Sequence record: MN840485.1 | Reading direction: 5' to 3' (one strand) | DNA length: 45,917 nucleotides | From: Escherichia phage 2725-N35 | The notes under the pieces: model-generated | Databases searched by the model: none | What the model was told of the DNA's origin: nothing | What the model saw: only the letters and a program-made list of their open reading frames with translations | Position numbers and translations under genes: made by a program | In this document: positions 1 through 45,575 of the stretch, in pieces | Layout of the letters: every line of letters begins with the position of its first letter | Position numbering within the stretch: position 1 is the stretch's first letter

Positions 1-983
1 CATCTTTAGCTAGGGCTAACTTCGAAAGAGTAATCTCCATCCATTACATCAATGAGGATGTAACCATCTTCTGTGATGACCAACTCATATTCGTAACCAG
101 TTTTGCGTGATTCGTAGAGAATTTTCCAGTGTAGATAGTAGCCATTTTATTTCTCTCTTTGTGTTTCGTTTCGATGGAGTAACTATACCCCATCTTTTAA
201 AATCGCCTTTAGCAATTCGTGCTATTTTGAAATCATTTCTTTGAATGCTGCAAGAAAACCCTCACGTCCGTAGGCGACTGCCGAGAAACCGCCTGATTCC
301 ATTACACTTTTCAGGAATGCCTTCTGTTCTTCGCTGACTGGACTTGCTTGAGTTTTGCCAGCCCTCTTTAGCTCTATAGCTCCGAAAGGATACTTACCTC
401 GAAGTGATTCAGGAATAAGAAACATACAGTCTGATACGCCTTTTAGAAGCCCCTTAGCCTGGTCTTTTCTTGCTTGACCAATGGTTTTCTTTCCCTCATT
501 CACGCAATGGAAAAATACCATATCTGGGTAGTTATACTTAACCCAATCAGAGCAAAAGATTTGTTCGTCATCCTCTTTAGGGCATGACTTAACCGGACCA
601 GGGTAAAACTCAATGTAATCTTCTTTATCTGTAATCTTCATAATAATTCTCCAAAATTCTTAAACGCTATCACGTCCTTTCCTTTTGCATTCCGGCGATG
701 CGTAACCTGAACTGGCGCACGGAACTTATCTACGTTAGTCATAATCATTCTGGCATTTTTAAGCCTGCCAATTCGCGCCGCTTCCGTGCGATTCTCAATA
801 TGAGCTAAGCAAAAGTTCTTCCAGAGCACACTGCAAACTCGATGGTCTGATTCTGGATTAAAGAACTCCCAAGCGTTAAATCTCTCTCCGTTATGAGCCA
901 TTATATTGTACTTAACTACAATGCCTGTCTGATTCTTACTTAACCCAACTTGAAAATCATAAACACGAAGGTAATCACCACGA
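1..983. repeat. Terminal direct repeat, copy A (matches ~44935..45917); contains the 3' end of the helicase gene, the VRR-NUC gene, one promoter element and the 5' part of a small gene
   Basis: Window start and end are collinear and near-identical; ORF-track proteins at 222..641 and 45156..45575 are identical. Two 2-bp indels between copies: 'gtagaga' at ~115 vs 'gtaga' in copy B, and 'ctttag' at ~5 vs 'ctttgtag' in copy B. Confidence 0.9.
222..641 (-). CDS. VRR-NUC-like (PD-(D/E)XK superfamily) nuclease
   Basis: 139 aa with 'FHCVNEG...', 'GAIELKRAGK' and an E/K-containing core typical of VRR-NUC; start overlaps the helicase stop (ATGA). Confidence 0.6.
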   Translation of the reverse strand: MKITDKEDYIEFYPGPVKSCPKEDDEQIFCSDWVKYNYPDMVFFHCVNEGKKTIGQARKDQAKGLLKGVSDCMFLIPESLRGKYPFGAIELKRAGKTQASPVSEEQKAFLKSVMESGGFSAVAYGREGFLAAFKEMISK

Positions 984-2733: not shown

Positions 2734-3213
2734 ATGAATACAGTCGACAAGCGAACAATTAACGGCAATAACGGAACCATCCGCACCGAAGACAAAAAGC
2801 AACGTAAACGACCTTCAGGCTACTATGTTTTAAAAGATGAAGTAAGAGCCGGGCTACGCGCGCGGCTAGAGATAGTTCTTGATTTCTTCGGCACAAAGGC
2901 GAATATCGCAAAGCAGTTAAAGGTAACACCACAGGCTGTAGAAGAATGGTTTAAGCGCGGTATGATTTCTGCGCGTGGGGCTCAACTTTCTCACAACTAC
3001 TATAAGCGAAATGGAGAAGGTTTTCGCGCTACATTCTGCCGACCAGACCTGCAATTCGACGGCAACGGGAGACCGCTGACACTTCGGTGCAAAAAGCGCC
3101 ATATGCTGCGAGTCGTCACTGAGGCTGAATTAGCCACTAAGCCAGAGTGTCGTTCATGGCGCAAGATAAAATTAGAGAACCAAAAGAAGAAAGAGCAAAA
3201 CAGCACGATTTGA
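2734..3213 (+). CDS. DNA-binding protein with Cro/YdaS-like helix-turn-helix; putative transcriptional regulator
   Basis: 159 aa; 'TKANIAKQLKVTPQAVEEWFKRGMIS' HTH; SD GAGGT upstream of ATG. Confidence 0.55.
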   Translation: MNTVDKRTINGNNGTIRTEDKKQRKRPSGYYVLKDEVRAGLRARLEIVLDFFGTKANIAKQLKVTPQAVEEWFKRGMISARGAQLSHNYYKRNGEGFRATFCRPDLQFDGNGRPLTLRCKKRHMLRVVTEAELATKPECRSWRKIKLENQKKKEQNSTI

Positions 3214-3268
3214 TAAACAATGGCACTTTGCATTATGTATAGTGCCTTTATTGTTTATGGAGGTAATT

Positions 3269-4282: not shown

Positions 4283-6817
4283 ATGGCAATTTATGACTCA
4301 GGAACAGCTTCTCTAGCAGCAAGTGGTGAGGTGACTGGCGTCGGGACAACATGGAAAGCACCTCTTACACTGATTCGTGTAGGTGCAACCATTGTATTTA
4401 AAACTGAACCAGTACAGATTTACACCATCTCAGAAATTATCAGCGATACGCAGATTAATGTTTACAACCCTAACTCCGAAACTGTTCCTGCTGGAACTGG
4501 TTACGCTATCCTTGCGCATGATGGAATTACCGTTCAGGGATTGGCTCAGGATGTAGCAGAGACTTTGCGTTACTACCAGTCTAAGGAGACATCCATCGAA
4601 GGATTGCTGCAATTTATTGGTCAAGACACTTTCGACTGGCCTCGCTTCGAGCAACTTGCAAATCAATCAATCACTGGAGCTGCGGAGGCGCTTGCTAGTC
4701 AGGTTACTGCCGCAGAGAGTGCTTCTACTGCTGTTAGCGCAAGAGACGCAACAACATCAGCGAGAGATGCTACTATTGAGGCAATTAATAGTGCTGGTGA
4801 TGCCAGCACGCTGGTTACTCTTGCTAATATTGGTATTGGTACATCATCACAGCCGCAGATAAGTGCGATTGACTGGCAGACGTATGATTTCAAGTCAATG
4901 TCTAGCTTCACAACGACGCTGCAGTCGATGAGTAACTTGCCTGCGGGGTTGAATTTTGCAACCGGAAACCCATACCTTTTTGTTACAGTTCTTTCATCAA
5001 GGTCTGTCGCAGGGACTGTATCGGCAAAGGTTCAAGTTTCAACAAGGGCCGATAACGACAACAACACAAGAGTTTACGACGTTTACGTAAATGGGAACGT
5101 CGGGTCTAGGGTTTTTTCTGTAAGAGAGAATCTTAGCCTTGTTTCAAACTCAACAACACCCGACGGAGGTGTAACTGCGGATAGAATCAGAAGCAGACTT
5201 GATATTTACTCAAAGAGTGAGACTGATGGGGTTGTAGATGCTCTTAAAAACTTCAAGCTTAATAATGTTTCATCAGTAGTTAGAAGTGTGGAATCAAAAC
5301 TTGGTGACTTTGTTAACGTCATGGATTTTGGTGCTACAAACAATGGTACTTTAGTTCCTCTTTCATCTAAATTTTCGACAATTGAGGATGCGCGGTTTGT
5401 TTATCCATTTGCATCAAACCTTAACGAGTCACTTGACGCAGTTGCGCTTCAGGCGGCGGTTAATACTGGCAAAACGGTATACATACCAAAAGGATTTATG
5501 TTTATTAACAGGACTGTAAGGATTGGCAACAGCACGAGAATTATTGGTGAGGGGACAAGCCAAATAAACAGGGCGCAAACATTTATATCAGTTGATGGAA
5601 ACATAAACCTGTTTGCCTTGGTTCAGGGTGGTGCTGAAAACATAAGAATGTATCAAGTATTTATTGAAGGACTTTACATTTTTTATAACCCAGGAACTAC
5701 ACCGACCGTAGCATCAGGGAATGATCAAAAGATAGCATTCAACTTTGTTTCTAATGTTGGTTCTGCCACAGGGCTAGAAAATTCATGTATCAAAGATTGC
5801 ACAGTTCATGGAGCGTGGGGTTGCTACCTTGATACTACTGGAACGTATCAAACAAAGCTGCAAAACGTATGGGCAAGGAACTGTAGAAACGGATTCATTA
5901 AAGCCACAGGAACTACAATTCTTATGGAAACATGCTACGCATCTGGCTGCGTTTCTCCTTTTGAATTTGGTTCAGTAATGAGTGTGACAATGATTAACTG
6001 CGCAATGGATGCCAGTAATATATCATCAACATCAGGTTCTTATGGTGGGGCTGGAATTAACTTCATCAACAGCCATAGTGTAAACATACTAGGGATGGAC
6101 GTCGAAGGTAACATTATTGACACCAACGGTTCTCAGGATTGCTGCCTTATTAGGTTTAATAACTCAAATGGCAGGATTTCTGGACTAACGTCATGGAAAA
6201 ACGAGGTTAGAACAACTGGAGGTGGTTCTGGTGGTGTGGTTTCATATATCAAGGCCTCTGGAACGTCTCACGTCATTATTGACTCGTCTGAGGATGATAT
6301 TAATGATAGCGGATTGGTTTACACTGGAACTGGTGGATATCCAGTAACAATTTACGCGGCAGATTCGGCGTCAAGGATTGATATTCTCAGCGGTAGGTTC
6401 CAGTCAGCTAAAGGGGGCTCCCCTTCGATATCGGTTGTTAGTCAGGGCAATGTGAACTGGTTTACTGAGCCTATGGGTGGTTCTATTGCTGGTGGTTATA
6501 AGCAGACATACTCATCAGAAGGATTGAGGACTAATGGTGTTTATACGGATAAAGGTTCAAAGGTGGTACAGGCAAGCGTTCCAACTGGGCTATTTGAATT
6601 ACCAAACTCACCAGGCTTGTACAAGGTTTGTACCTGGGTGGCTAATGCTGGAACAAACTATAGCGTCATAGCTGACGTTCTATTTGATGGAGCCACATCA
6701 TCAATTACAGTCACTAAGACGGCAGCATTTACAACACTGGATGTTAGTTCAAGGACTGTCAGTATAACTGCACGGGGTGCAGCCACTTACAAATGGACTT
6801 ACACTAAAATAGGTTAA
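4283..6817 (+). CDS. Tail fibre/tailspike protein with predicted right-handed beta-helix (possible depolymerase) domain
   Basis: 845 aa; N-terminus 'MAIYDSGTASLAASGEVTGVGTTWKAPLTLIRVGATIVFK' as in T1/T5-type fibre anchors; central region rich in N/G/T/S beta-helix-like repeats. Confidence 0.65.
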   Translation: MAIYDSGTASLAASGEVTGVGTTWKAPLTLIRVGATIVFKTEPVQIYTISEIISDTQINVYNPNSETVPAGTGYAILAHDGITVQGLAQDVAETLRYYQSKETSIEGLLQFIGQDTFDWPRFEQLANQSITGAAEALASQVTAAESASTAVSARDATTSARDATIEAINSAGDASTLVTLANIGIGTSSQPQISAIDWQTYDFKSMSSFTTTLQSMSNLPAGLNFATGNPYLFVTVLSSRSVAGTVSAKVQVSTRADNDNNTRVYDVYVNGNVGSRVFSVRENLSLVSNSTTPDGGVTADRIRSRLDIYSKSETDGVVDALKNFKLNNVSSVVRSVESKLGDFVNVMDFGATNNGTLVPLSSKFSTIEDARFVYPFASNLNESLDAVALQAAVNTGKTVYIPKGFMFINRTVRIGNSTRIIGEGTSQINRAQTFISVDGNINLFALVQGGAENIRMYQVFIEGLYIFYNPGTTPTVASGNDQKIAFNFVSNVGSATGLENSCIKDCTVHGAWGCYLDTTGTYQTKLQNVWARNCRNGFIKATGTTILMETCYASGCVSPFEFGSVMSVTMINCAMDASNISSTSGSYGGAGINFINSHSVNILGMDVEGNIIDTNGSQDCCLIRFNNSNGRISGLTSWKNEVRTTGGGSGGVVSYIKASGTSHVIIDSSEDDINDSGLVYTGTGGYPVTIYAADSASRIDILSGRFQSAKGGSPSISVVSQGNVNWFTEPMGGSIAGGYKQTYSSEGLRTNGVYTDKGSKVVQASVPTGLFELPNSPGLYKVCTWVANAGTNYSVIADVLFDGATSSITVTKTAAFTTLDVSSRTVSITARGAATYKWTYTKIG

Positions 6818-9867: not shown

Positions 9868-9935
9868 TAGCACGAATAGCTAAAGACATTCCGCACTGAC
9901 GGTTGTATTATTACTACATCGAAACGAAACAACTT
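9868..9935 (+). promoter_or_regulatory. P-box promoter for the lipoprotein/receptor-binding protein operon
   Basis: AATAGCACGAATAGCTAAAG, 23 nt, TATTAT, TACTACATCGAAACGAAAC leader. Confidence 0.55.
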
Positions 9936-9950
9936 AATAAGGAATACAAA

Positions 9951-10196
9951 ATGACTAACTTCATCAAATCAGCAATCATAGCGGCGGCAGTAATCATGAC
10001 GGTAGGTTGTTCTTCTGGTCCTCGACCTGATGGGTGGTGTGCAACACAAGCAAACGGCGTGTGCGTAGCTAAGTGGAAAGGCGGTGTAGTTGTTCCGGCT
10101 GGTGATGTTGATATTCGCTACGCTGGCATTGAAAGCAAATCTGGCGGCGGTTACGGCGGTTCTGTTGCAGATCACGGCAGTAAGGAGTGGAAATAA
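9951..10196 (+). CDS. Small lipoprotein; candidate superinfection-exclusion factor
   Basis: Signal peptide with lipobox (...IMTVGC SSG); SD AAGGA; track ORF trimmed to this ATG. Confidence 0.6.
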
Positions 10197-16767: not shown

Positions 16768-16771
16768 TAGT

Positions 16772-17122
16772 TTAACGCATTGAGCTAAAAACTTCTACGA
16801 ATTGCATGTTTACAGTCTGAACTTCGCTACTAATTGGTGTAACTGAAATGCTATCCTGCTGAATAACAAACATAGAAGTATCACCTTGCGGTGTTTTCCA
16901 GAAGAATGGTGTGATGATGTGATTGAAGCAGAAATCCATAACCTCACGCCAGTCCTTGTTTGTATAGGTCATCTGGTAGCTGCGCTTATTACTGCGGTAG
17001 CCCCCTGTTCCTCTTTGCTCAAAACCATTGCCAAAGCTAACAATACGAACATTGTTTGTATTGGAAAATGCAGCTCCACCATTCTGGATTTGTGTACACC
17101 ATGTAAAATTATCTATTGCCAT
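16772..17122 (-). CDS. Minor tail protein, lambda gpM-like
   Basis: 116 aa, immediately downstream of the tape measure gene. Confidence 0.6.
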   Translation of the reverse strand: MAIDNFTWCTQIQNGGAAFSNTNNVRIVSFGNGFEQRGTGGYRSNKRSYQMTYTNKDWREVMDFCFNHIITPFFWKTPQGDTSMFVIQQDSISVTPISSEVQTVNMQFVEVFSSMR

Positions 17123-20842: not shown

Positions 20843-21091
20843 TTACTTAGTGTTTTCTTTTGCAATATTAGCAGCCGAGTCCTTGCAGACCTCTTTGCCA
20901 TATTTCATGATTTGGTCAACTTTACCACCTACAAGTTCCTGGCATGCTCGCTCAGCTTTAGCGAACTCAACAGTATATTTGTTTGCCTTGATATTTGCAT
21001 CAGCCTCACCAGTTGGGTTAACAATCTGAACCACTGCATAAAAAGCAACCAGAACTGCAGCAAGCTTGATGATGTTTTTAACGTTATTCAT
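20843..21091 (-). CDS. Moron: small secreted or membrane-anchored protein
   Basis: 82 aa; N-terminal hydrophobic segment IIKLAAVLVAFYAVVQIV; own P-box promoter and an upstream terminator; inserted between the major tail and chaperone genes. Confidence 0.6.
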   Translation of the reverse strand: MNNVKNIIKLAAVLVAFYAVVQIVNPTGEADANIKANKYTVEFAKAERACQELVGGKVDQIMKYGKEVCKDSAANIAKENTK

Positions 21092-21109: not shown

Positions 21110-21170
21110 CGTTTCGATGAGTTAACTATACAGGAAGATTGGATTAACGCTTTAGCAAAAAGTGCTATGC
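21110..21170 (-). promoter_or_regulatory. P-box promoter for the moron gene
   Basis: ATAGCACTTTTTGCTAAAG, 22 nt, TATAGTTAACTCATCGAAACGAAATGAG. Confidence 0.6.
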
Positions 21171-21175
21171 AATAA

Positions 21176-21201
21176 AAAACCCTCCGAAGAGGGTTTGTGT
21201 T
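21176..21201 (-). terminator. Terminator after the major tail protein gene
   Basis: ACCCTC-ttcg-GAGGGT then T6. Confidence 0.75.
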
Positions 21202-26196: not shown

Positions 26197-27291
26197 TTAT
26201 TTCTTAATTTTAGCTAAACGAGCACGTGGGTCTAATTTCTTAGGCTCATCGGCGCTGTCAGATTTGTCGGAAGCAGTAGTTGCTTTACGTACTTCAGCCA
26301 TTTTATCAGATTCTTTGGCAATGTCGAATGCCGCGTCGATGTATGCGTCAGACTTCTCACTAACATCAAGACCGGAGACTTCTTTAACGTAAGCAACTTT
26401 AATGCCTTTAGCATCCAGACCGTCAGCCTTAACACCAGCCTCAGCAGCAACAGCAACCAGAGCGGCTAGGGCATCAGCATCAGCTTTCGCTTTAGCAACG
26501 GCAGCTTCGATTTCAGCTGGCATTGCATCTACTTTAGCTTTCAGAGAATCGCGCTCTGCGATTGCAGTGTCAGCCTTTGCGTTCAGTGCTTCGATGTGAG
26601 AAGCGATTTCCGGGGCAACTTCAAATTCCTGTGCTCCGTCGAGTTTAATCTTAATCATTTTCTGTTTATCCTCTTTATTGATATCAACGTCAGTAGTATA
26701 CGGGTTTTCCTGTTGAGCGTCAAAATTTAACTTTGCCACCTGAGCTCTTCCTTTGTATACCAGTGCGACATGGTTTACTTTAATTTCAGTCTGCAGCGCA
26801 TCGAATCTAACCCAGTCAGAAGGAATTTCATCCTGTGATTGATACTCACCGTCTAGCTTGTACTCACCAGTTTCGTTACTACCCCAGCCTTTAGACTCAA
26901 CGTCAACAGTTGAGTACCCTACGGATAGCTCACCAGCAATGCCATTTTTTGCCTTCTCGATTGATTCCTTGTCATAAATAGTTAGTGGAACAATAACATT
27001 TGAATCTTCACGCATTGCTGAGCCAGATACCGCCCCTACAACGACCTCTTTAGCATTCTCTGAGTTAACAAAAACATGACCTAAGGTAATTGGCTTACCC
27101 TGATAACTAGCCAGAGAATCATGCTTAAATACCTCTGAGGCTGGTCTAAATTCTCTGCGTTCTTTGCCATCTGGAAGGTAGTAGGTTTGCACCCCGACGC
27201 GTGCAACAATCGGGGTATCAACCAGAAAGCCGTTTTCATCAAATCTAGCTTTCACCTTCGCGCTGTCATAGCGCAATTTCTTCATTAACAA
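26197..27291 (-). CDS. Head morphogenesis protein (possible prohead protease/scaffold fusion)
   Basis: 364 aa directly downstream of portal; C-terminal A/K/E-rich coiled-coil-like region. Confidence 0.45.
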   Translation of the reverse strand: MLMKKLRYDSAKVKARFDENGFLVDTPIVARVGVQTYYLPDGKERREFRPASEVFKHDSLASYQGKPITLGHVFVNSENAKEVVVGAVSGSAMREDSNVIVPLTIYDKESIEKAKNGIAGELSVGYSTVDVESKGWGSNETGEYKLDGEYQSQDEIPSDWVRFDALQTEIKVNHVALVYKGRAQVAKLNFDAQQENPYTTDVDINKEDKQKMIKIKLDGAQEFEVAPEIASHIEALNAKADTAIAERDSLKAKVDAMPAEIEAAVAKAKADADALAALVAVAAEAGVKADGLDAKGIKVAYVKEVSGLDVSEKSDAYIDAAFDIAKESDKMAEVRKATTASDKSDSADEPKKLDPRARLAKIKK

Positions 27292-28534
27292 CCTCCGTCT
27301 CTGTGATTAATTCCGATTCCTCGGCCTGGATATCGCCATCACCAATCTTAATTTCTGGTGCGATAGTGCGTAGTGTATCACGGGCTTCGTTAGTATCCAT
27401 AGCGCCAGATGCAATTAGCGTCGCGATGCTGCTTACGTTCTTCTCAAGAATCTCAGCCTTATCCTTGCTTGACTCCTGAGCTAAGGGATAAAACTCAACT
27501 GACCACTCTTCTACATTTACGATGAACGGGATTAAGAACCCAAGAATAGGAAGCAACTCAGAGTTACGTTTGCGGTCAACTAGCTTATGGAATGTCTCAA
27601 GGGCTGTATTCTGGCTTGATGACACACCACCAACGTTCTTGTTTTTCAGGATGATTTCATGGATACCGCTCAGGGCAACGATTCTATCGAACTTCTTATC
27701 CAGGAACGCATCGATCCCGCCAATATCGGAGTTGAGAATGCTGTATTCTTCAGATTCCGCATCGATACCAATCGCCTGGCCTACGCCGCTATTGTTGTCA
27801 ACCTGTGCAAGTCTCAATCGAGCTGCACCAAATCCTTCGCTATCATCACATAACTCAGCCAGACCTTTCGCCTTCCACACCGCCTGCTGCTTGCGCTTCA
27901 GTAACTGCGTAGCAAGTCGTTCACAGTTGGTGTAATCCTTAATTGAGTCAAGAATGTCACTGGATAGAACGCTACGGCCCCAGCCATCATTTTGCCGACG
28001 CATTACGTTAGGAATTCGCTCACCATCTATGATATGAATGCGGCTATAATGCACATCGTAGAACATATCGCTTTCGTTTGTGGTGATGCGATAGGTTAGG
28101 GGATTACCAAAACGTGCGTTGCGTGGATTCTCCTCTCGAGTTTGTACTTTCACCTGCGTGCGGTCGTAAACACGAACGGTTTCAAGTTCTGCGCCTTCTC
28201 TTACCGGGCTTGTTAGAGATCTATTGTCTTTGACGATAGCCACAATAGCAGAACCGCCGAACAATCTAGCCCACGACCAGGCTTCGTTGATGTGCTTTGT
28301 CAGCTCCAGGTAGTCCCAACGAGACCAAAATGCTGGCTCATCATCAATACCATCAATGTGGAATCCTGCCGCTAATGCTGTCTCAGGGATTGTGTCGATA
28401 ATTCTACGTACCAGCGCATTATTCGCATAAAGAGAAGCCAGGATTGTAGGCTCCTGATTCTGTAAGCTCCCGTAAATCTCACTACCATCACTGCCGCCGA
28501 GAAAGATATTGGCGTAGCTGTCTGTCTTTACCAT
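27266..28534 (-). CDS. Portal protein
   Basis: Size and position downstream of terminase; start trimmed to ATG (MVKTD...) after the upstream hairpin. Confidence 0.7.
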   Translation of the reverse strand: MVKTDSYANIFLGGSDGSEIYGSLQNQEPTILASLYANNALVRRIIDTIPETALAAGFHIDGIDDEPAFWSRWDYLELTKHINEAWSWARLFGGSAIVAIVKDNRSLTSPVREGAELETVRVYDRTQVKVQTREENPRNARFGNPLTYRITTNESDMFYDVHYSRIHIIDGERIPNVMRRQNDGWGRSVLSSDILDSIKDYTNCERLATQLLKRKQQAVWKAKGLAELCDDSEGFGAARLRLAQVDNNSGVGQAIGIDAESEEYSILNSDIGGIDAFLDKKFDRIVALSGIHEIILKNKNVGGVSSSQNTALETFHKLVDRKRNSELLPILGFLIPFIVNVEEWSVEFYPLAQESSKDKAEILEKNVSSIATLIASGAMDTNEARDTLRTIAPEIKIGDGDIQAEESELITETEVVNEEIAL

Positions 28535-28551
28535 TGCATTTCTCCAATAAA

Positions 28552-28575
28552 AAAGCCCCATGTGGGGGCTAGTTT
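28552..28575 (-). terminator. Hairpin with T-run upstream of portal
   Basis: GCCCCC-acat-GGGGC then T5. Confidence 0.5.
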
Positions 28576-28591
28576 ATCACACGGTTTTTGA

Positions 28592-28966
28592 TTACTCGAA
28601 TTTTACTTCGAACTTGATTGATGATGTATCAACCCCACTAGATTCAAAGTCCTTGACGCATAATAGCGTATCGTCGAACTTTACCTTAGTAACCACTTCG
28701 CCATTGATGTAATATCTAAACTCGGGTTTTTTATCGGCGCTAGGATGCATGGATGCGCACTCAGTTTCAGTTACAAAATGATCCTCATTGATTAGTTTAA
28801 ACTTGTAGAACGTTCCGTTTTTAATACAACGTTCAGTATCATTATCATCGCAAAGACCAATAAATCCATCACCAAGATCGTAAAAATCGTACTCTCTTCC
28901 CGGCGTGAATTCACAACACTCGTCATAAGTGTTTCCAAGATATAAAGCCTTTGATTTGTTTTTCAT
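28592..28966 (-). CDS. Moron: Cys-rich small protein between TerL and portal
   Basis: 124 aa with several Cys; own P-box promoter upstream, hairpin downstream. Confidence 0.55.
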   Translation of the reverse strand: MKNKSKALYLGNTYDECCEFTPGREYDFYDLGDGFIGLCDDNDTERCIKNGTFYKFKLINEDHFVTETECASMHPSADKKPEFRYYINGEVVTKVKFDDTLLCVKDFESSGVDTSSIKFEVKFE

Positions 28967-28989
28967 TTGCCTTTTCTCCTCTTGTTTGT

Positions 28990-29045
28990 GTGAAGTAACT
29001 ATACGCCATCCGTGGCTCTAGCGTTTAGCAATTCGTGCTATTTAA
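28990..29045 (-). promoter_or_regulatory. P-box promoter for the 28592..28966 moron
   Basis: AAATAGCACGAATTGCTAAAC, 22 nt, TATAGTTACTTCACACAAAC; the TerL stop codon (TAG) lies within the motif. Confidence 0.6.
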
Positions 29046-30609
29046 TTCCCGCTATGCGCATTAGTCGCGCTTTGGGGTCATCTGAGATATTGAGAACAAG
29101 GTTTACCGCCATTGTCATGGTATCAATTTGGTCGTCGTGCTTATGCGAGTCGTCTGCAGTGAAAGCCGCAATCTCAGTGAGTAATCCGCTTAGCCACGGT
29201 GCTGACTCCGGAAGAACGACGTTACCAGCCTTAATCTGTGGCAATGCGCTCATTACCCTAGTTAGCTTGTCGTTATCCGGTACGTATGGCTCTATCGGTG
29301 TTCGCATAACCCTGCCAGCTGATTGAATAAGGCCGATACCAGACGCTTTCTTCTCGATAATAATCTTTCGGAGGATACCATCCGACTGACTGGTTGCCCT
29401 TGATTTCTTCTCGAAGTCCAGTAGTTCAGCTTCCAATTCCGGCGCTTCCCACTTACCTCTGCGCTGGTCTATCAGGTAAATCCTAGCATCCTTATAGCCC
29501 CATAACTGAAGCACGGAGAAGTCACTATAACTCTTTGTGGTCATCGCAGTATCGCAAGTTATGAATCTATAATCGTACTTGGCTGGAGGCCTGAATGTAT
29601 CACTAAGACGCTGGAACCAGTCTACGTTAATCAGATTGCCACCAAGTGCTACAGGTTCTTGTTGATACTGACTTAGGAAAGTGTACGGGTCAGCATCCCA
29701 CATAGCCATCAAGTCTTCTATTGATTCCTTTGCCGGAAAGTAGCTGTAATACTTAACTCCATCCCGCTCTACGAATGGCGAAGAAAGAACATCATCAATA
29801 AATTGTTGCTTAATCCAATCAGGAAGCGTGTCTACGTAATCCTCTGTGACTATGGCTGGAACTTTCACTACGTCGAACTTGATGCCCATTTGTCCAGACT
29901 CCATGAAGTGGCTAGTATCCAGAACATGAAGTCTTTGCTGAACTGCAAGTATTGGCGTTTCCTTTCCCTTTACTGAGCTAGCTCGACGTGAACGAATTGT
30001 GTTCTTGAGAAGCATATTGACAGCCTCTCTTCTTACATTACTTAGCGCGTCATCAGGTTTTAGTGGGTCATCCAGCATTATGCAACCACTATAATCGTCA
30101 GTCATGTAGCCACCCCTACTTCCCGTCACCTGTCCAGCCATCGCCTTAGATATAGACTCAAACCTAACTTTGCCACTCTCATCCAGCACCTGAATCTCGT
30201 CATCCCTGCATGTTCCAAAGGTGCAAGGCCAAAGCTCCTGGAACTCCTTTGACTTAATTAGGTCACGGACGCGCTTGGAGTTGCGCTTAACCAATGAGTC
30301 AGAGAATGACAAACTAAGATTCCTGACCTTCTTAATCTTAATCATGCTATACACAGGGAAGTGAATGCTAAAAAGTTCGGTTTTGGCAGATCCAGGAGCT
30401 ATGTTTATGATGGTGTCCTTTCTCTTTCCCTCAAGAATCTCATCTATAACACGGCATAGGTACTTAGTATGCCAATTCATTTTGAATCTCTCGCCCTGAG
30501 TTATCTGGAAGAAACACCGCAAGAACCACTCGAAACTATGCTCAGAGATGGCCTTGATAGCCATTTTTTCTGCATACGTCAGTTCATCCCACACGATTAA
30601 ATCACTCAT
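29038..30609 (-). CDS. Terminase large subunit
   Basis: Walker A-like 'IAPGSAKT', Walker B 'CIMLDDP', C-terminal nuclease-like region; start chosen at ATG after GGAGG (track ORF extends to 30690, overlapping the HNH gene). Confidence 0.85.
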   Translation of the reverse strand: MSDLIVWDELTYAEKMAIKAISEHSFEWFLRCFFQITQGERFKMNWHTKYLCRVIDEILEGKRKDTIINIAPGSAKTELFSIHFPVYSMIKIKKVRNLSLSFSDSLVKRNSKRVRDLIKSKEFQELWPCTFGTCRDDEIQVLDESGKVRFESISKAMAGQVTGSRGGYMTDDYSGCIMLDDPLKPDDALSNVRREAVNMLLKNTIRSRRASSVKGKETPILAVQQRLHVLDTSHFMESGQMGIKFDVVKVPAIVTEDYVDTLPDWIKQQFIDDVLSSPFVERDGVKYYSYFPAKESIEDLMAMWDADPYTFLSQYQQEPVALGGNLINVDWFQRLSDTFRPPAKYDYRFITCDTAMTTKSYSDFSVLQLWGYKDARIYLIDQRRGKWEAPELEAELLDFEKKSRATSQSDGILRKIIIEKKASGIGLIQSAGRVMRTPIEPYVPDNDKLTRVMSALPQIKAGNVVLPESAPWLSGLLTEIAAFTADDSHKHDDQIDTMTMAVNLVLNISDDPKARLMRIAGIK

Positions 30610-31114
30610 CTTTCCTCCCATGGTTTTTATGATACCCAAGAATAAATTCAGCCCTCGCCCTGACAATCGACGCGTCGTGAATATTATCAAAGAATCCCAA
30701 GTGAATATTCTCTCCGTCCTTTTTTATTTGAGCCGCATACTTACCAGTCCTGGATACTATGCAGACTCCGGTAACCCCGGTCTTATTCCTCGAATTTATT
30801 GATTGATTCTTTCTATTTTCCTGAATTGTAACTAACCTAAGGTTTTCTATCCTGTTATCATTTCTAACATGATTTATATGGTCAATTTGCATACCTTCTG
30901 GTATTGCTCCGTTATGCATTTCCCAGATTATTCTATGAACCCAATATTTTTTACCCGGCATGTTTACCCTAACATACCCTAGGCTTTTATCAATGCCGCC
31001 AACCTCTTTCCCTATGAATCTTCGCTGTATCCTTCTCCTTCCAAGCTTCTCGCTATCGTAATCTTTCCAGTAAATCTTCCCATCTTTGTATTCAAAATAA
31101 TCATGCCAATTCAT
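30602..31114 (-). CDS. HNH endonuclease (homing-endonuclease-like)
   Basis: 'IDHINHVRNDNRIENLRLVTIQENRKNQ' HNH motif; inserted between terS and terL. Confidence 0.8.
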   Translation of the reverse strand: MNWHDYFEYKDGKIYWKDYDSEKLGRRRIQRRFIGKEVGGIDKSLGYVRVNMPGKKYWVHRIIWEMHNGAIPEGMQIDHINHVRNDNRIENLRLVTIQENRKNQSINSRNKTGVTGVCIVSRTGKYAAQIKKDGENIHLGFFDNIHDASIVRARAEFILGYHKNHGRKDE

Positions 31115-31182: not shown

Positions 31183-31689
31183 CTATAACTTACTAATAAC
31201 AGACTCCAGCGCTTCCTTCATGCTATCAACGTCGTTAGCTGTGGAGTTGTTGCTAATGGTAATCTCCTGCGGCTTATCAATCCCTAGCTCTTTACCAACG
31301 ATTGTGGAGTTGATGATGCCTGCAACGCCAAGCTGATACTTCTGCTCGTAAATTACGTTATCAATAAATTCCATCACATCAGAGTATCCAGCCTCTGTAC
31401 GCCAGCGTGCGAATCTATTGATGTTAACACCCATGAAGAGCGCCAGACCTGTTAATGTGAATACTCGAGGCTTGTGCACTAAACTCTCGCTAACCACGCC
31501 CTGGAATGCCGCCGTCTCAATGGCTTTGATTGCCTCATTCTCAGCCCATGAAAAGTATCTCACTGCAAAGTCAAATACCTCCTCTGGAGTGCACTTGCGG
31601 TTGATTGCCACCATAGCAATATCGCCATACTTCTTGTTATAAAGCGCCTTGAAATTTCCATCACCCATCTTTAATGCTGCTTTGCTCAT
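31183..31689 (-). CDS. Terminase small subunit, putative
   Basis: 168 aa directly upstream of HNH/TerL; first gene after a strong promoter. Confidence 0.6.
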   Translation of the reverse strand: MSKAALKMGDGNFKALYNKKYGDIAMVAINRKCTPEEVFDFAVRYFSWAENEAIKAIETAAFQGVVSESLVHKPRVFTLTGLALFMGVNINRFARWRTEAGYSDVMEFIDNVIYEQKYQLGVAGIINSTIVGKELGIDKPQEITISNNSTANDVDSMKEALESVISKL

Positions 31690-31732: not shown

Positions 31733-31760
31733 GAAAAAAAGCCCTCAAGCGAGGGCTAAA
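31733..31760 (-). terminator. Rho-independent terminator ending the tRNA/small-gene transcript
   Basis: AGCCCTCGCTTGAGGGCT then T7 on the minus strand. Confidence 0.75.
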
Positions 31761-33429: not shown

Positions 33430-33495
33430 CTCATTGTTTCGATGGGGTAACTATAACAAATTACCCCAATTCTGCTTTAGTAATTCGTGCTACTT
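33430..33495 (-). promoter_or_regulatory. P-box promoter
   Basis: AGTAGCACGAATTACTAAAG, 22 nt, TATAGTTACCCCATCGAAACAATGAGAG. Confidence 0.6.
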
Positions 33496-34409: not shown

Positions 34410-34475
34410 TCATGTGGTTGATGCTGGGGATTATACCAGTCAGTATGAATCCCCTTTTATCAATTCGTGCGATCT
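34410..34475 (-). promoter_or_regulatory. P-box promoter (variant upstream box) with perfect TATAAT
   Basis: GATCGCACGAATTGATAAAAG, 22 nt, TATAAT; long (~130 nt) leader. Confidence 0.55.
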
Positions 34476-43673: not shown

Positions 43674-43922
43674 TTAATCCTTAGGCTTCGTTATCTTAAA
43701 CTTGAATCCCTCAGATTTAAGGAATTCATTAACATCAATCCTGATACCTGGCTTAACTCTTACGTATTTTCTTGGTCGCTCATCCATGTATGAGAATTTA
43801 CCATTAAAGACAACACTGATATCTTTTATTTCAAAGAAGCGGGATATCTGCTTAATGTCATCTTGCAATCCAGCCTCTCCACAATGCGCCCATACTGCTG
43901 CTCGCCCAGTTTCAACTATCAT
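43674..43922 (-). CDS. Hypothetical protein
   Basis: 82 aa ORF. Confidence 0.45.
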   Translation of the reverse strand: MIVETGRAAVWAHCGEAGLQDDIKQISRFFEIKDISVVFNGKFSYMDERPRKYVRVKPGIRIDVNEFLKSEGFKFKITKPKD

Positions 43923-44044
43923 AAGCCGTAGGCCATTTTCATGTATTCTTTAGCGCACATCCAGCAATAATCAGAGCCAGTTTTTACAGCATCATTTGCG
44001 TATATCTGTGCGATCTCAAACATCTCTCTGTCTACAATTTTCAT
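43919..44044 (-). CDS. Hypothetical small protein (41 aa)
   Basis: ORF MKIVDREMFEIAQ...; ATGA-coupled to the downstream gene. Confidence 0.3.
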   Translation of the reverse strand: MKIVDREMFEIAQIYANDAVKTGSDYCWMCAKEYMKMAYGL

Positions 44045-44115
44045 CTCTTAATCCTATGTGTTGTTGATGTGCTTAATATAATCCATACGTGGATTTGAGT
44101 TTTAACAAAAAGTGC
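44045..44115 (-). promoter_or_regulatory. P-box promoter (AAAAG-type)
   Basis: GAATAGCACTTTTTGTTAAAAC, 22 nt, TATATTAAGCACATCAACAACAC. Confidence 0.55.
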
Positions 44116-44309
44116 TATTCAACTAAGAAGCTAACTTCTTTTCCATTCGAATCTCTACACCCGTAATACCCGTCACCTTGATAACTAACGAACCAATAGC
44201 ATCCATTATCGCTCAATACTGTTATTGCGCCATCTGAATTAAAGATAATTTCGTAATCTTCAAGTAGAGTAAAGAAACCATTTGCTTTTACACAAGTTGC
44301 ATTAATCAT
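44115..44309 (-). CDS. Hypothetical small protein
   Basis: 64 aa ORF. Confidence 0.45.
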   Translation of the reverse strand: MINATCVKANGFFTLLEDYEIIFNSDGAITVLSDNGCYWFVSYQGDGYYGCRDSNGKEVSFLVE

Positions 44310-44506
44310 CTCACAATCTCCACATCTAATTTTGAAACACTAACAACAATACCCGCATCGTTTTTAACGATGTATCTATCTGAGTCTGCGGAAATTTCAA
44401 GAACAAAATAGCTATTCCCGCGCTTTAGAAGGTACTCATCAATATCCATCCGTGGGGTGTTGTTTCTTGGCTTAAACGTAACAACGAACGGTCTATTATT
44501 AATCAT
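44306..44506 (-). CDS. Hypothetical small protein
   Basis: Start trimmed to the ATG overlapping the upstream stop. Confidence 0.45.
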   Translation of the reverse strand: MINNRPFVVTFKPRNNTPRMDIDEYLLKRGNSYFVLEISADSDRYIVKNDAGIVVSVSKLDVEIVR

Positions 44507-44724
44507 AAGAAATCCTCCGGGCAATCTTTCTTCATTTCTTCGATATCAGCAACCATACGGTCGCGCCACGTTTCGATATCAGTGTTCAGGTAATCTTCTT
44601 CAAAGCTATAGTCCAATGACTCAGCAAGATCGTATGAGTTTGGTTGATATCCTGCTTTATTTAACTCCTGCATTGCCATTAATTTAAATACTTCCCATTG
44701 ATTATCAAATGTAAAAATTGCCAT
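44503..44724 (-). CDS. Hypothetical acidic small protein
   Basis: 73 aa ORF. Confidence 0.45.
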   Translation of the reverse strand: MAIFTFDNQWEVFKLMAMQELNKAGYQPNSYDLAESLDYSFEEDYLNTDIETWRDRMVADIEEMKKDCPEDFL

Positions 44725-44882
44725 TATTCCGATACCTCCAATCCATCAACCAGCTTAATTGGAACAACAACCTCACACCCACCATCAATTACGAAAACAA
44801 ACTTATCAATGTATTGTGAGAATGTATTGAAGAAGAACGTTGAATCCTCCCCAGTTTTCCAGTTTACAATTGCCTCTCTCAT
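44724..44882 (-). CDS. Hypothetical small protein (52 aa)
   Basis: ORF MREAIVNWKTGED...; ATGA-coupled to the upstream gene. Confidence 0.3.
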   Translation of the reverse strand: MREAIVNWKTGEDSTFFFNTFSQYIDKFVFVIDGGCEVVVPIKLVDGLEVSE

Positions 44883-45079
44883 TCTGATACCTCATCAAAT
44901 TTTTCGCCAAATTCGTTTTTAACAGTTTCTAAATCATCTTTGTAGCTAGGGCTAACTTCGAAAGAGTAATCTCCATCCATTACATCAATGAGGATGTAAC
45001 CATCTTCTGTGATGACCAACTCATATTCGTAACCAGTTTTGCGTGATTCGTAGAATTTTCCAGTGTAGATAGTAGCCAT
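44879..45079 (-). CDS. Hypothetical small protein
   Basis: Start set at ATG (MATIYTGKFY...) 30 nt downstream of the P-box -10; track ORF extends to 45127. Confidence 0.45.
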   Translation of the reverse strand: MATIYTGKFYESRKTGYEYELVITEDGYILIDVMDGDYSFEVSPSYKDDLETVKNEFGEKFDEVSE

Positions 45080-45116
45080 TTTATTTCTCTCTTTGTGTTT
45101 CGTTTCGATGGAGTAA

Positions 45117-45162
45117 CTATACCCCATCTTTTAAAATCGCCTTTAGCAATTCGTGCTATTTT
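45117..45162 (-). promoter_or_regulatory. P-box promoter (archetype; duplicated at ~182..228)
   Basis: AAAATAGCACGAATTGCTAAAGG, 22 nt, TATAGTTACTCCATCGAAACGAAAC; VRR-NUC stop TAG lies inside the box. Confidence 0.6.
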
Positions 45163-45575
45163 GAAATCATTTCTTTGAATGCTGCAAGAAAACCCTCACG
45201 TCCGTAGGCGACTGCCGAGAAACCGCCTGATTCCATTACACTTTTCAGGAATGCCTTCTGTTCTTCGCTGACTGGACTTGCTTGAGTTTTGCCAGCCCTC
45301 TTTAGCTCTATAGCTCCGAAAGGATACTTACCTCGAAGTGATTCAGGAATAAGAAACATACAGTCTGATACGCCTTTTAGAAGCCCCTTAGCCTGGTCTT
45401 TTCTTGCTTGACCAATGGTTTTCTTTCCCTCATTCACGCAATGGAAAAATACCATATCTGGGTAGTTATACTTAACCCAATCAGAGCAAAAGATTTGTTC
45501 GTCATCCTCTTTAGGGCATGACTTAACCGGACCAGGGTAAAACTCAATGTAATCTTCTTTATCTGTAATCTTCAT
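45156..45575 (-). CDS. VRR-NUC-like nuclease (duplicate of 222..641 within the terminal repeat)
   Basis: Identical 139-aa translation. Confidence 0.6.
   Translation of the reverse strand: MKITDKEDYIEFYPGPVKSCPKEDDEQIFCSDWVKYNYPDMVFFHCVNEGKKTIGQARKDQAKGLLKGVSDCMFLIPESLRGKYPFGAIELKRAGKTQASPVSEEQKAFLKSVMESGGFSAVAYGREGFLAAFKEMISK

Follow-up and report, generated by a model that had tools for sequence, protein, structure and literature searches.

A probable mobile accessory cassette between the large terminase and portal genes of the T1-like coliphage 2725-N35

Between the gene for the large terminase (terL) and the portal gene of Escherichia phage 2725-N35, a T1-like coliphage of the Drexlerviridae, lies an open reading frame (ORF) encoding a protein of 124 amino acids. 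The stretch of DNA analysed, referred to below as the window, is the 45,917-nucleotide sequence record MN840485.1. The morphogenesis genes are all on its minus strand, as are the ORF and its signals, and the product is identical to QHJ72675.1, which is listed in GenBank as a hypothetical protein. Comparison of this locus with those of other phages suggests that the ORF, together with the repeat module in front of it, is probably a real, dispensable and horizontally mobile accessory cassette carried by T1-like phages, and so a moron if the term is taken broadly. The nearest records to the window are Veterinaerplatzvirus T145P1 (95% nucleotide identity), followed by other Rtp-like Drexlerviridae.

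The ORF is optional. The terL–portal junction was surveyed in 56 portal-bearing IMG/VR loci and in phage records. About 40 of the 56 loci have an empty junction, with only a terminator hairpin in a gap of 52–102 nt, while five carry a member of the 124-amino-acid family in a gap of 458–488 nt. An HNH endonuclease gene occupies the junction in L005, L017, L037 and L055 (gap 589–633 nt), and in AugustePiccard and RobRod40 an HNH gene and a family member are found together. In phage DTL, terL is joined directly to the terminator and the gap measures 52 nt; FP, Msk and others are also empty, and the ORF is absent from many close relatives in which portal and terL are near-identical. The terL–portal junction is a recurrent insertion spot in the Drexlerviridae. 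A preliminary description, made from the sequence of 2725-N35 by itself, had considered an autonomous gene at this position to be unusual. This view does not hold, as the junction recurrently houses the 124-amino-acid family, an HNH endonuclease, or both. The G+C content of the ORF is 37.3%, against 45.4% for terL and 47.1% for the portal gene, and falls within the lowest 4% of 375-nt segments, which points to a foreign origin.

Comparison of empty and occupied junctions separates the cassette from the phage backbone. The empty site of DTL reads ...AAATAG-CCGTGATAAACT-AAGCCCCTATATGGGGC-TTTTTT-ATTGGAGAAA..ATG, whereas in the window ...AAATAG is followed by an insert running from CACGAATT to TCAAAAA, and then by CCGTGTGATAAACT-AGCCCCCACATGGGGC-TTTTTT-ATTGGAGAAA..ATG. 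Thus the terminator and the motif TGnTAAACT are backbone, and the insert consists of leader and ORF. The hairpin and T-run that had been noted downstream of the ORF do form a strong intrinsic terminator (stem of 6 bp with 5 G–C pairs, loop of 5; −14.6 kcal/mol, z = −4.4, with 0 of 200 shuffled sequences as stable). Since it also stands at the terL–portal junctions of relatives without the ORF, however, it is a backbone element and no part of the ORF cassette. The adjoining motif TGaTAAACT has the best sigma-70-like score of the junction (99.9th percentile); a start from TAAACT would fall inside the terminator stem, so such transcripts would escape termination. At the minor-tail junction, too, TAAACT (16769–16775, minus strand) immediately precedes the terminator. 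Terminator-like sites on the minus strand lie at 31757 (before terS), 28570 (before the portal gene), 25648, 23838, 23500, 21196, 20171, 16768, 14649 and 11184. Between the site at 31757–31740, upstream of terS, and that at 28570 none was found on this strand, and read-through from terL to the end of the ORF is therefore expected.

Family members were found in three genomic contexts. In JulesPiccard, a paralogue (bas03_0023) is located between the Phage_min_tail and Phage_tail_L genes, and the same arrangement is seen in independent metagenome contigs. The upstream flank at this tail site comprises TTAAATAGCACTTTTTGCTAAAC, a hairpin (GACA-TGGA-TGTC), the hexamer TATATT, a leader and a ribosome-binding site ahead of the ORF; the downstream flank comprises TGtTAAACT, a terminator and ATTGGAGAAA. 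The window holds the empty version of the tail site, in which the stop codon lies within TTAAACT and is followed by the terminator, with no box. Comparison of the occupied and empty tail sites thus indicates that the box travels with the gene, and that the cassette is inserted immediately upstream of a TAAACT–terminator mark that was already there. The third context is provided by a 140-kb Vequintavirinae-like contig and two further contigs, which contain a homologue with 37% identity over its full length. In the Vequintavirinae-like setting the homologue is situated downstream of the DNA polymerase gene, from which a few small genes separate it, and directly behind a perfect TTGACA-17-TATAAT. 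In L081, two T1-type modules (4420–4436 and 4654–4670) lie directly downstream of the family member, the second with a GCCA..TGG hairpin and the leader AAACAAGAGGAG, an arrangement suggestive of the transfer of T1-like cassettes, as a block, into a Vequintavirinae-like phage. The gene has thus moved between phage families, and into a non-structural neighbourhood. Among cultured Vequintavirinae records there was no match to the 124-amino-acid protein. In a 43-kb metagenome contig (L063/L069, 2082–3260), an unrelated ORF of 139 amino acids takes the place of terL upstream of a family member, and only the first part of the portal gene lies downstream (tblastn match from 3003; 84-amino-acid ORF at 3003–3257) before unrelated genes follow, a layout due either to rearrangement or to misassembly.

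The signal upstream of the ORF belongs to a repeated module. The preliminary description had correctly placed its upstream box over the terL stop codon, the TAG (29040–29038) being the first triplet of TAGCACGAATTGCTAAA. This box is present in 21 copies in the window (up to two mismatches), against 1.76 expected, and 21 copies were reached in 0 of 100 shuffles. Every copy lies on the strand of the ORF downstream of it. A hexamer matching TATAAT in at least five of six positions is found at an offset of 36–38 from the box in 19 of the 21 copies, and at 37 in 16 of them. Copies repeated at so fixed an offset identify the signal upstream of the ORF as a genuine repeat rather than a chance match. 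The module runs from the palindromic box through the −10-like hexamer and a leader of about 25 nt to a strong ribosome-binding site. On the 3' side of the hexamer the copies share the conserved sequence TAcc.CAtc.AaAc, followed by the ribosome-binding site and by a start codon 68–88 nt from the box; at the 124-amino-acid ORF the distance from box start to ATG is 74 nt. The whole module is conserved in front of homologues, with the hexamer kept as TATAGT, TATATT or TATAAT in their leaders. A putative transcription start can be placed at the A at 28991, which is preceded by C and would give a leader of 25 nt. With the fixed box–hexamer offset, the palindrome TAGCA-N5-TGCTA is then centred about 42 bp upstream of this start. 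A palindrome near −42 is the geometry of promoters at which a required dimeric activator overlaps the −35 region.

This box is not new to T1-like phages. In the reannotation of phage TLS, a 21-nt direct repeat with the consensus aaATAGCACnnnTTGnTAAAA was described at 21 sites, 18 of them intergenic, oriented the way transcription runs and about 76 nt ahead of start codons; it was also reported from T1, Rtp and Rogue1 (PMC11447400). The sequence AAATAGCACGAATTGCTAAAC at 29043–29023 (minus strand) matches this consensus, and its position, orientation and copy number also fit those of the T1-like direct repeat. Other copies of the module in the window precede the genes for two helicases, a primase, an Erf-like annealing protein and an HNH protein, a lipoprotein gene and many small ORFs, whereas no copy in the window stands ahead of any identified virion gene. 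Examples of box sites are 224(−), 8046(−), 21167(−), 32906(−), 33492(−), 34996(−), 37850(+) and 45158(−). The module and the first nine or so codons downstream of it are doubled at the two ends of the window (1–250 and 44880–45185; boxes at 224 and 45158), where the coding sequences diverge after MATIYTGKF; this could represent terminal redundancy or a partial duplication. In the spacer between box and hexamer, the stem of the short inverted repeat shows compensatory changes, as GCCA/TGGC, as GACA/TGTC at the tail junction and as GCTCA/TGAGC in the HNH leader. A significant inverted repeat abutting or enclosing the hexamer is present in 12 of 20 modules (offsets 17–49; mean z = −2.2), and it differs from copy to copy, as in GGGGTAA...TTACCCC at 33492 and GGGGAT...ATCCCC at 34472.

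The reality of the ORF, already assumed in the preliminary description, is borne out by its strong ribosome-binding site and by a reading frame that is kept in an alignment of 63 divergent full-length members. The family is small, comprising 33 phage records, 66 clusters at 90% identity among 5.8 billion sequences (E ≤ 0.001) and, in a profile search of 1.84 billion proteins, 35 representatives. phrog_14592 is the only PHROG matched (E = 1e-31 over residues 5–124). In domain comparisons with unsaturated synonymous divergence (dS), the ratio of non-synonymous to synonymous divergence (dN/dS) is about 0.25–0.7, which indicates that the gene evolves fast yet under constraint. Between phages, the leader and the downstream flank are 70–90% identical, whereas the N- and C-terminal segments vary independently of one another: their respective identities are 38% and 87% in L002, and 79% and 64% in L060. 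Two types of C-domain combine with two types of N-domain. A frameshift is present in the A-run after ...EFINKK in phiEB49 (L001, 2495–2520) and in ACG-M12/ECH1 (P0057), and could reflect true inactivation, a sequencing error in the homopolymer, or slippage. Such broken copies were considered as signs of decay of the gene but set aside: the break in phiEB49 and ACG-M12 lies in the A-run of old assemblies, and the frameshifted L072 also has a broken terL.

The protein has a mass of 14.3 kDa and an isoelectric point of 4.7, and is hydrophilic, with no hydrophobic or transmembrane segment. A structure was predicted with AlphaFold2 from the 63-sequence alignment, an earlier model from 15 sequences having given a poor C-domain. 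The model has two domains joined by a linker that is predicted to be disordered. The C-domain is the more confidently predicted, with predicted local distance difference test (pLDDT) values per 10-residue block of 87–95 for residues 81–120 and 79 for 121–124. The residues invariant among the 63 members are N88, F97, I117 and E120. A Foldseek search of the PDB with the C-domain gave no structural match (best E 0.07), and a sequence search of the PDB with the family profile yielded chance-level hits only (A118 integrase, E about 0.6). Two tandem-repeat proteins, P0077 and P0079, weakly link the N-domain motif FTxGKxY...DDxG to DUF7244 and DUF6501. No paralogue of the 124-amino-acid protein was found in the window; small early ORFs of 64, 72 and 82 amino acids at 43900–45130(−) resemble the SH3-like N-domain motif Y.G....F..G..YE...DG..I.D..G, although their similarity to the protein is at chance level (E = 3.6).

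On the favoured reading, that of a mobile accessory cassette, the ORF would be transcribed as the last cistron of the terS–HNH–terL unit by read-through from terL, and probably also from its own module, whose promoter activity is putative. All of these transcripts would end at the backbone terminator. The product is expected to be a soluble, acidic, cytoplasmic protein of two domains, in which the fast-evolving, putatively SH3-like N-domain may be the target-binding part and the conserved C-domain the constant part, serving either partner binding or self-association. It would most likely act within the infected cell, in conflict between phage and host or between phages, and not as a structural component of the particle. 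A broader proposal, which we put forward tentatively and think unlikely to hold, is that module and small gene constitute a portable unit inserted by T1-like phages at 'TAAACT plus terminator' marks and exchanged even with unrelated phages. The 124-amino-acid family would then be a conflict protein, such as a counter-defence factor or a decoy, its N-domain diversifying against a variable target of the host or of a rival and its constant C-domain keeping hold of one fixed partner.

A number of observations weigh against this reading, and concern the function of the protein, its virion label and the nature of the module. The proposed role in conflict derives from genomic context only: no homologue of known function was found, and scans of the protein against Pfam, NCBIfam and PADLOC gave no match. 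Distant Drexlerviridae keep the box at the terL stop codon, ahead of the portal gene, where the junction is empty. At this place the box may thus predate the ORF, and its occurrence extends beyond non-virion genes. Nor, being placed ahead of the portal gene, can the module be equated with 'early'. At the empty junctions of L018, L020, L024 and L033 (about 2900–3000) the box is kept and is followed by TATAAT or TACAAT after only 6 nt. The terminator hairpin of L033 contains GACAAT in its loop, at the canonical 37-nt offset. Furthermore, RefSeq and PHROGs name the family 'virion structural protein'. The corresponding explanation is that the protein is an accessory of the virion or of its assembly (a decoration or neck protein, or a packaging helper) encoded by the last gene of the packaging operon, with the C-domain as anchor and the N-domain exposed. 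It accords with the position of the ORF in the head and packaging module between terL and portal, with a second insertion site that lies between tail genes, and with the pairing of a conserved anchor and a variable domain, which is typical of decoration proteins. However, the ORF is missing from many close relatives whose portal and terL genes are near-identical, and in a Vequintavirinae-like phage, whose virion partners would be different, a homologue follows a consensus sigma-70 promoter among small genes beside the DNA polymerase gene; conserved presence in a structural-module context is thus not what the relatives display. No experiment behind the label could be traced in the literature; the ACG-M12 paper contains no proteomics, and a literature search for cryo-electron microscopy structures of Drexlerviridae returned nothing relevant. 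The depositors' GenBank entries call the protein hypothetical, and JK06 has the label on a frameshifted fragment from the N-terminus of the portal protein (compare phrog_15615), which suggests naming by position. Two published virion proteomics tables of T1-like phages list other proteins only, namely ORF12/13 of the AHP24 type, which is not a portal neighbour, and gp21, gp22 and gp29 of Rogue1, a weak point since these were band-excision studies and carriage of the gene by AHP24-type phages and Rogue1 was unchecked. The name is probably misleading and 'optional accessory gene' the better description; a virion role is unlikely.

The module, for its part, may not be a promoter. It could serve as operator or 'stoperator', as an enhancer or UP-like site, or as a signal for RNA processing or stability, with the gene simply co-transcribed with terL and not autonomous, an explanation which excludes neither the favoured reading nor a virion or assembly role. 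The promoter-like element of the preliminary description has proved to be a genuine 21-copy module but not a canonical sigma-70 promoter: TTGCTA and TATAGT are separated by 22 nt, compared with the usual 16–18 (15–19 at most), a consensus promoter scan found no match in the ORF leader, and the best position weight matrix candidate with a spacer of 15–19 nt (TAAACG-18-TATAGT) scores no higher than 359 other positions of that strand. A literature search for transcript maps of T1-like phages found none. The authors of the TLS study left the role of the repeat undecided between a stoperator, an enhancer-binding site and a UP-like element, and found only three sigma-70-like intergenic promoters (PMC11447400). 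The absence of a terminator from upstream of terS to the end of the ORF, with the read-through that this implies, and the inverted repeats around the hexamer in 12 of the 20 modules, which would suit a protein-binding or RNA-structure role, also fit this explanation. Against it, the −10 element is near-consensus and keeps a fixed distance from the box in 19 of 21 copies, a CA is conserved where transcription would start, and the leader is short. Together these have the look of a promoter family, and a box centred near −42 fits activator-dependent promoters. An RNA hairpin formed by the box is argued against by its stem, in which there are no compensatory changes but only mismatches and G–U-compatible transitions, and the leader as RNA is not unusually stable (z = −1.4). 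Overall, a non-promoter role for the module is rather unlikely. It is a good deal more doubtful that homing-endonuclease traffic at this junction accounts for the ORF, as its cargo or its relic, with spread driven by neighbouring HNH genes and not by any benefit of its own. HNH genes do occupy the same junction, alone or directly upstream of a family member; the AugustePiccard HNH leader is related, with aaaTAGCAC after the coding sequence of terL as well as after that of the HNH gene, and the HNH gene between terS and terL in the window has a degenerate module and a similarly low G+C content. Nevertheless, most family members have no adjacent HNH gene and the reading frame is held over wide divergence. 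HNH nuclease motifs have conserved histidines, none of which is present in the 124-amino-acid protein. Finally, the preliminary description had called the protein Cys-rich, and the 2725-N35 protein does contain six cysteines in its 124 residues (positions 17, 18, 39, 47, 70 and 103), including a CC pair, as might suit a small zinc or redox protein. Yet each of these positions is a cysteine in only 5–26 of the 63 members, some members have no cysteine at all, there is no CxxC spacing, and the predicted domains are ordinary beta and alpha/beta folds. Richness in cysteine is a property of the 2725-N35 allele only, and a cysteine-based function is effectively refuted.

Features of the terL–portal junction and neighbouring genes in the window (N- and C-domain folds and linker as predicted)
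Feature	Position	Strand	Remarks
terS	31183–31689	−	GP3_package
HNH endonuclease gene	30602–31114	−	HNH_3
terL (large terminase)	29038..30609	−	Pfam Terminase_6C; phrog_38 at 4.7e-107
Repeat box TAGCACGAATTGCTAAA	29024..29040	−	palindrome TAGCA-N5-TGCTA; T1-like direct-repeat element
Short inverted repeat GCCA-CGGA-TGGC	29005..29016	−	spacer between box and hexamer; kept in homologous leaders
−10-like hexamer TATAGT	28998..29003	−	37 nt after box start
ORF ribosome-binding site GAGGAG	28976..28981	−	9 nt before ATG; kept in all homologous leaders
124-amino-acid ORF	28592..28966	−	ATG 28966 to TAA 28594–28592; phrog_14592
N-domain, residues 5–59	28790..28954	−	predicted five-stranded SH3-like beta-barrel; pLDDT about 70–85; highly variable between phages
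Linker, residues 60–82	28721..28789	−	predicted disordered, pLDDT <50 at 62–78; variable length, with indels
C-domain, residues 83–124	28595..28720	−	predicted beta-hairpin, helix, strand; motifs YYING, SSIKFEVKFE
Extended −10-like motif TGaTAAACT	28571..28579	−	directly upstream of terminator stem; kept at empty junctions
Intrinsic terminator	28548..28570	−	stem AGCCCC/GGGGCT (28570–28554), loop CACAT, then TTTTTT
Portal ribosome-binding site GGAG	28545–28542	−	upstream of ATG 28534
Portal gene	27266..28534	−	Phage_portal_3, 4.6e-66; phrog_146; ATG 28534 from sequence
Prohead protease gene	26197–27291	−	phrog_530

The start of terL was assigned from the sequence to the ATG at 30609, the ORF caller having extended the gene to a TTG at 30690. 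The 3' end of the HNH gene upstream overlaps this start; its G+C content is 38.8%, the degenerate repeat module lies at 31185, and the gene is missing from relatives such as CEB_EC3a and DTL. Elsewhere in the late region, a gene for an 82-amino-acid protein with a hydrophobic N-terminus (20843–21091, minus strand; phrog_22925) has its box at 21167, directly behind the terminator at 21196–21177. No integrase was found among the genes of the window that were examined, the whole window not having been screened.

Accessory genes between late genes, the terminator-punctuated late region of T1 and the repeat are already known, and the gene itself is in the databases as hypothetical. New here are the survey of terL–portal junctions, the second and third genomic contexts, the mosaic anatomy of the two-domain protein and the fixed box-to-hexamer geometry. 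To phage specialists the cassette will come as little surprise, accessory genes in late operons being well established. Nonetheless, a mobile and fast-evolving two-domain protein that is present in several BASEL phages (Bas01, Bas03) is an easy candidate for screens of counter-defence and exclusion, and the 21-copy T1-like repeat, with its 37-nt offset and a palindrome near −42, has the anatomy of an activator-type family of promoters.

A number of parallels can be drawn with known systems. The SH3-like fold predicted for the N-domain would resemble that of small phage proteins such as Gp54 of the Drexlerviridae phage Bas11 (PDB 9axb), DUF7244 and DUF6501, which are without the conserved C-domain of the 124-amino-acid family. 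There is no detectable sequence similarity between 9axb and the family, and the resemblance, seen in a predicted model, is one of fold only and has no bearing on function. The superinfection-exclusion lipoprotein gene cor, annotated in JulesPiccard, is likewise an accessory gene embedded in the late region. Unlike the 124-amino-acid protein, which is predicted to be cytoplasmic and whose gene is co-oriented with its neighbours, Cor is a lipoprotein with a role in exclusion and its gene runs against the tail genes. The window has a gene of 81 codons at 9951–10196(+), on the strand opposite to the tail genes and with a box at 9868(+), which by its lipoprotein signal (...VGC) and position would be cor-like; PHROGs gives it no function.

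The concept of the moron was developed by Hendrix and colleagues for lambdoid and HK97-like phages, in which morons are classically genes expressed from the prophage. The cassette in 2725-N35 resembles these in being an extra gene between genes that are adjacent in relatives, with a deviant base composition, a promoter-like signal upstream and a terminator downstream. In contrast to them, its terminator pre-exists at the empty site, and its upstream signal, far from being a foreign sigma-70 promoter, is the phage's own repeated module. As T1-like phages have been called virulent (PMC11447400), prophage expression would not be expected. The term moron, as first applied to this ORF, can thus be retained for extra DNA of deviant composition at a junction that is empty in relatives, but not in the sense of a unit with its own terminator or, probably, of a prophage-expressed gene. 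There are parallels also with the direct repeats and 'transcriptons' of TLS, T1, Rtp and Rogue1. The box upstream of the ORF matches aaATAGCACnnnTTGnTAAAA, and the late region of the window is similarly cut by rho-independent terminators, such as those which bound the transcriptons described in the late region of T1 (PMC11447400, citing the 2004 T1 genome paper). While the published repeat is a 21-nt element, however, in 2725-N35 it forms the upstream half of a longer module that extends about 37 nt to a −10-like hexamer, and the repeat has also been seen travelling with an accessory gene to a second site.

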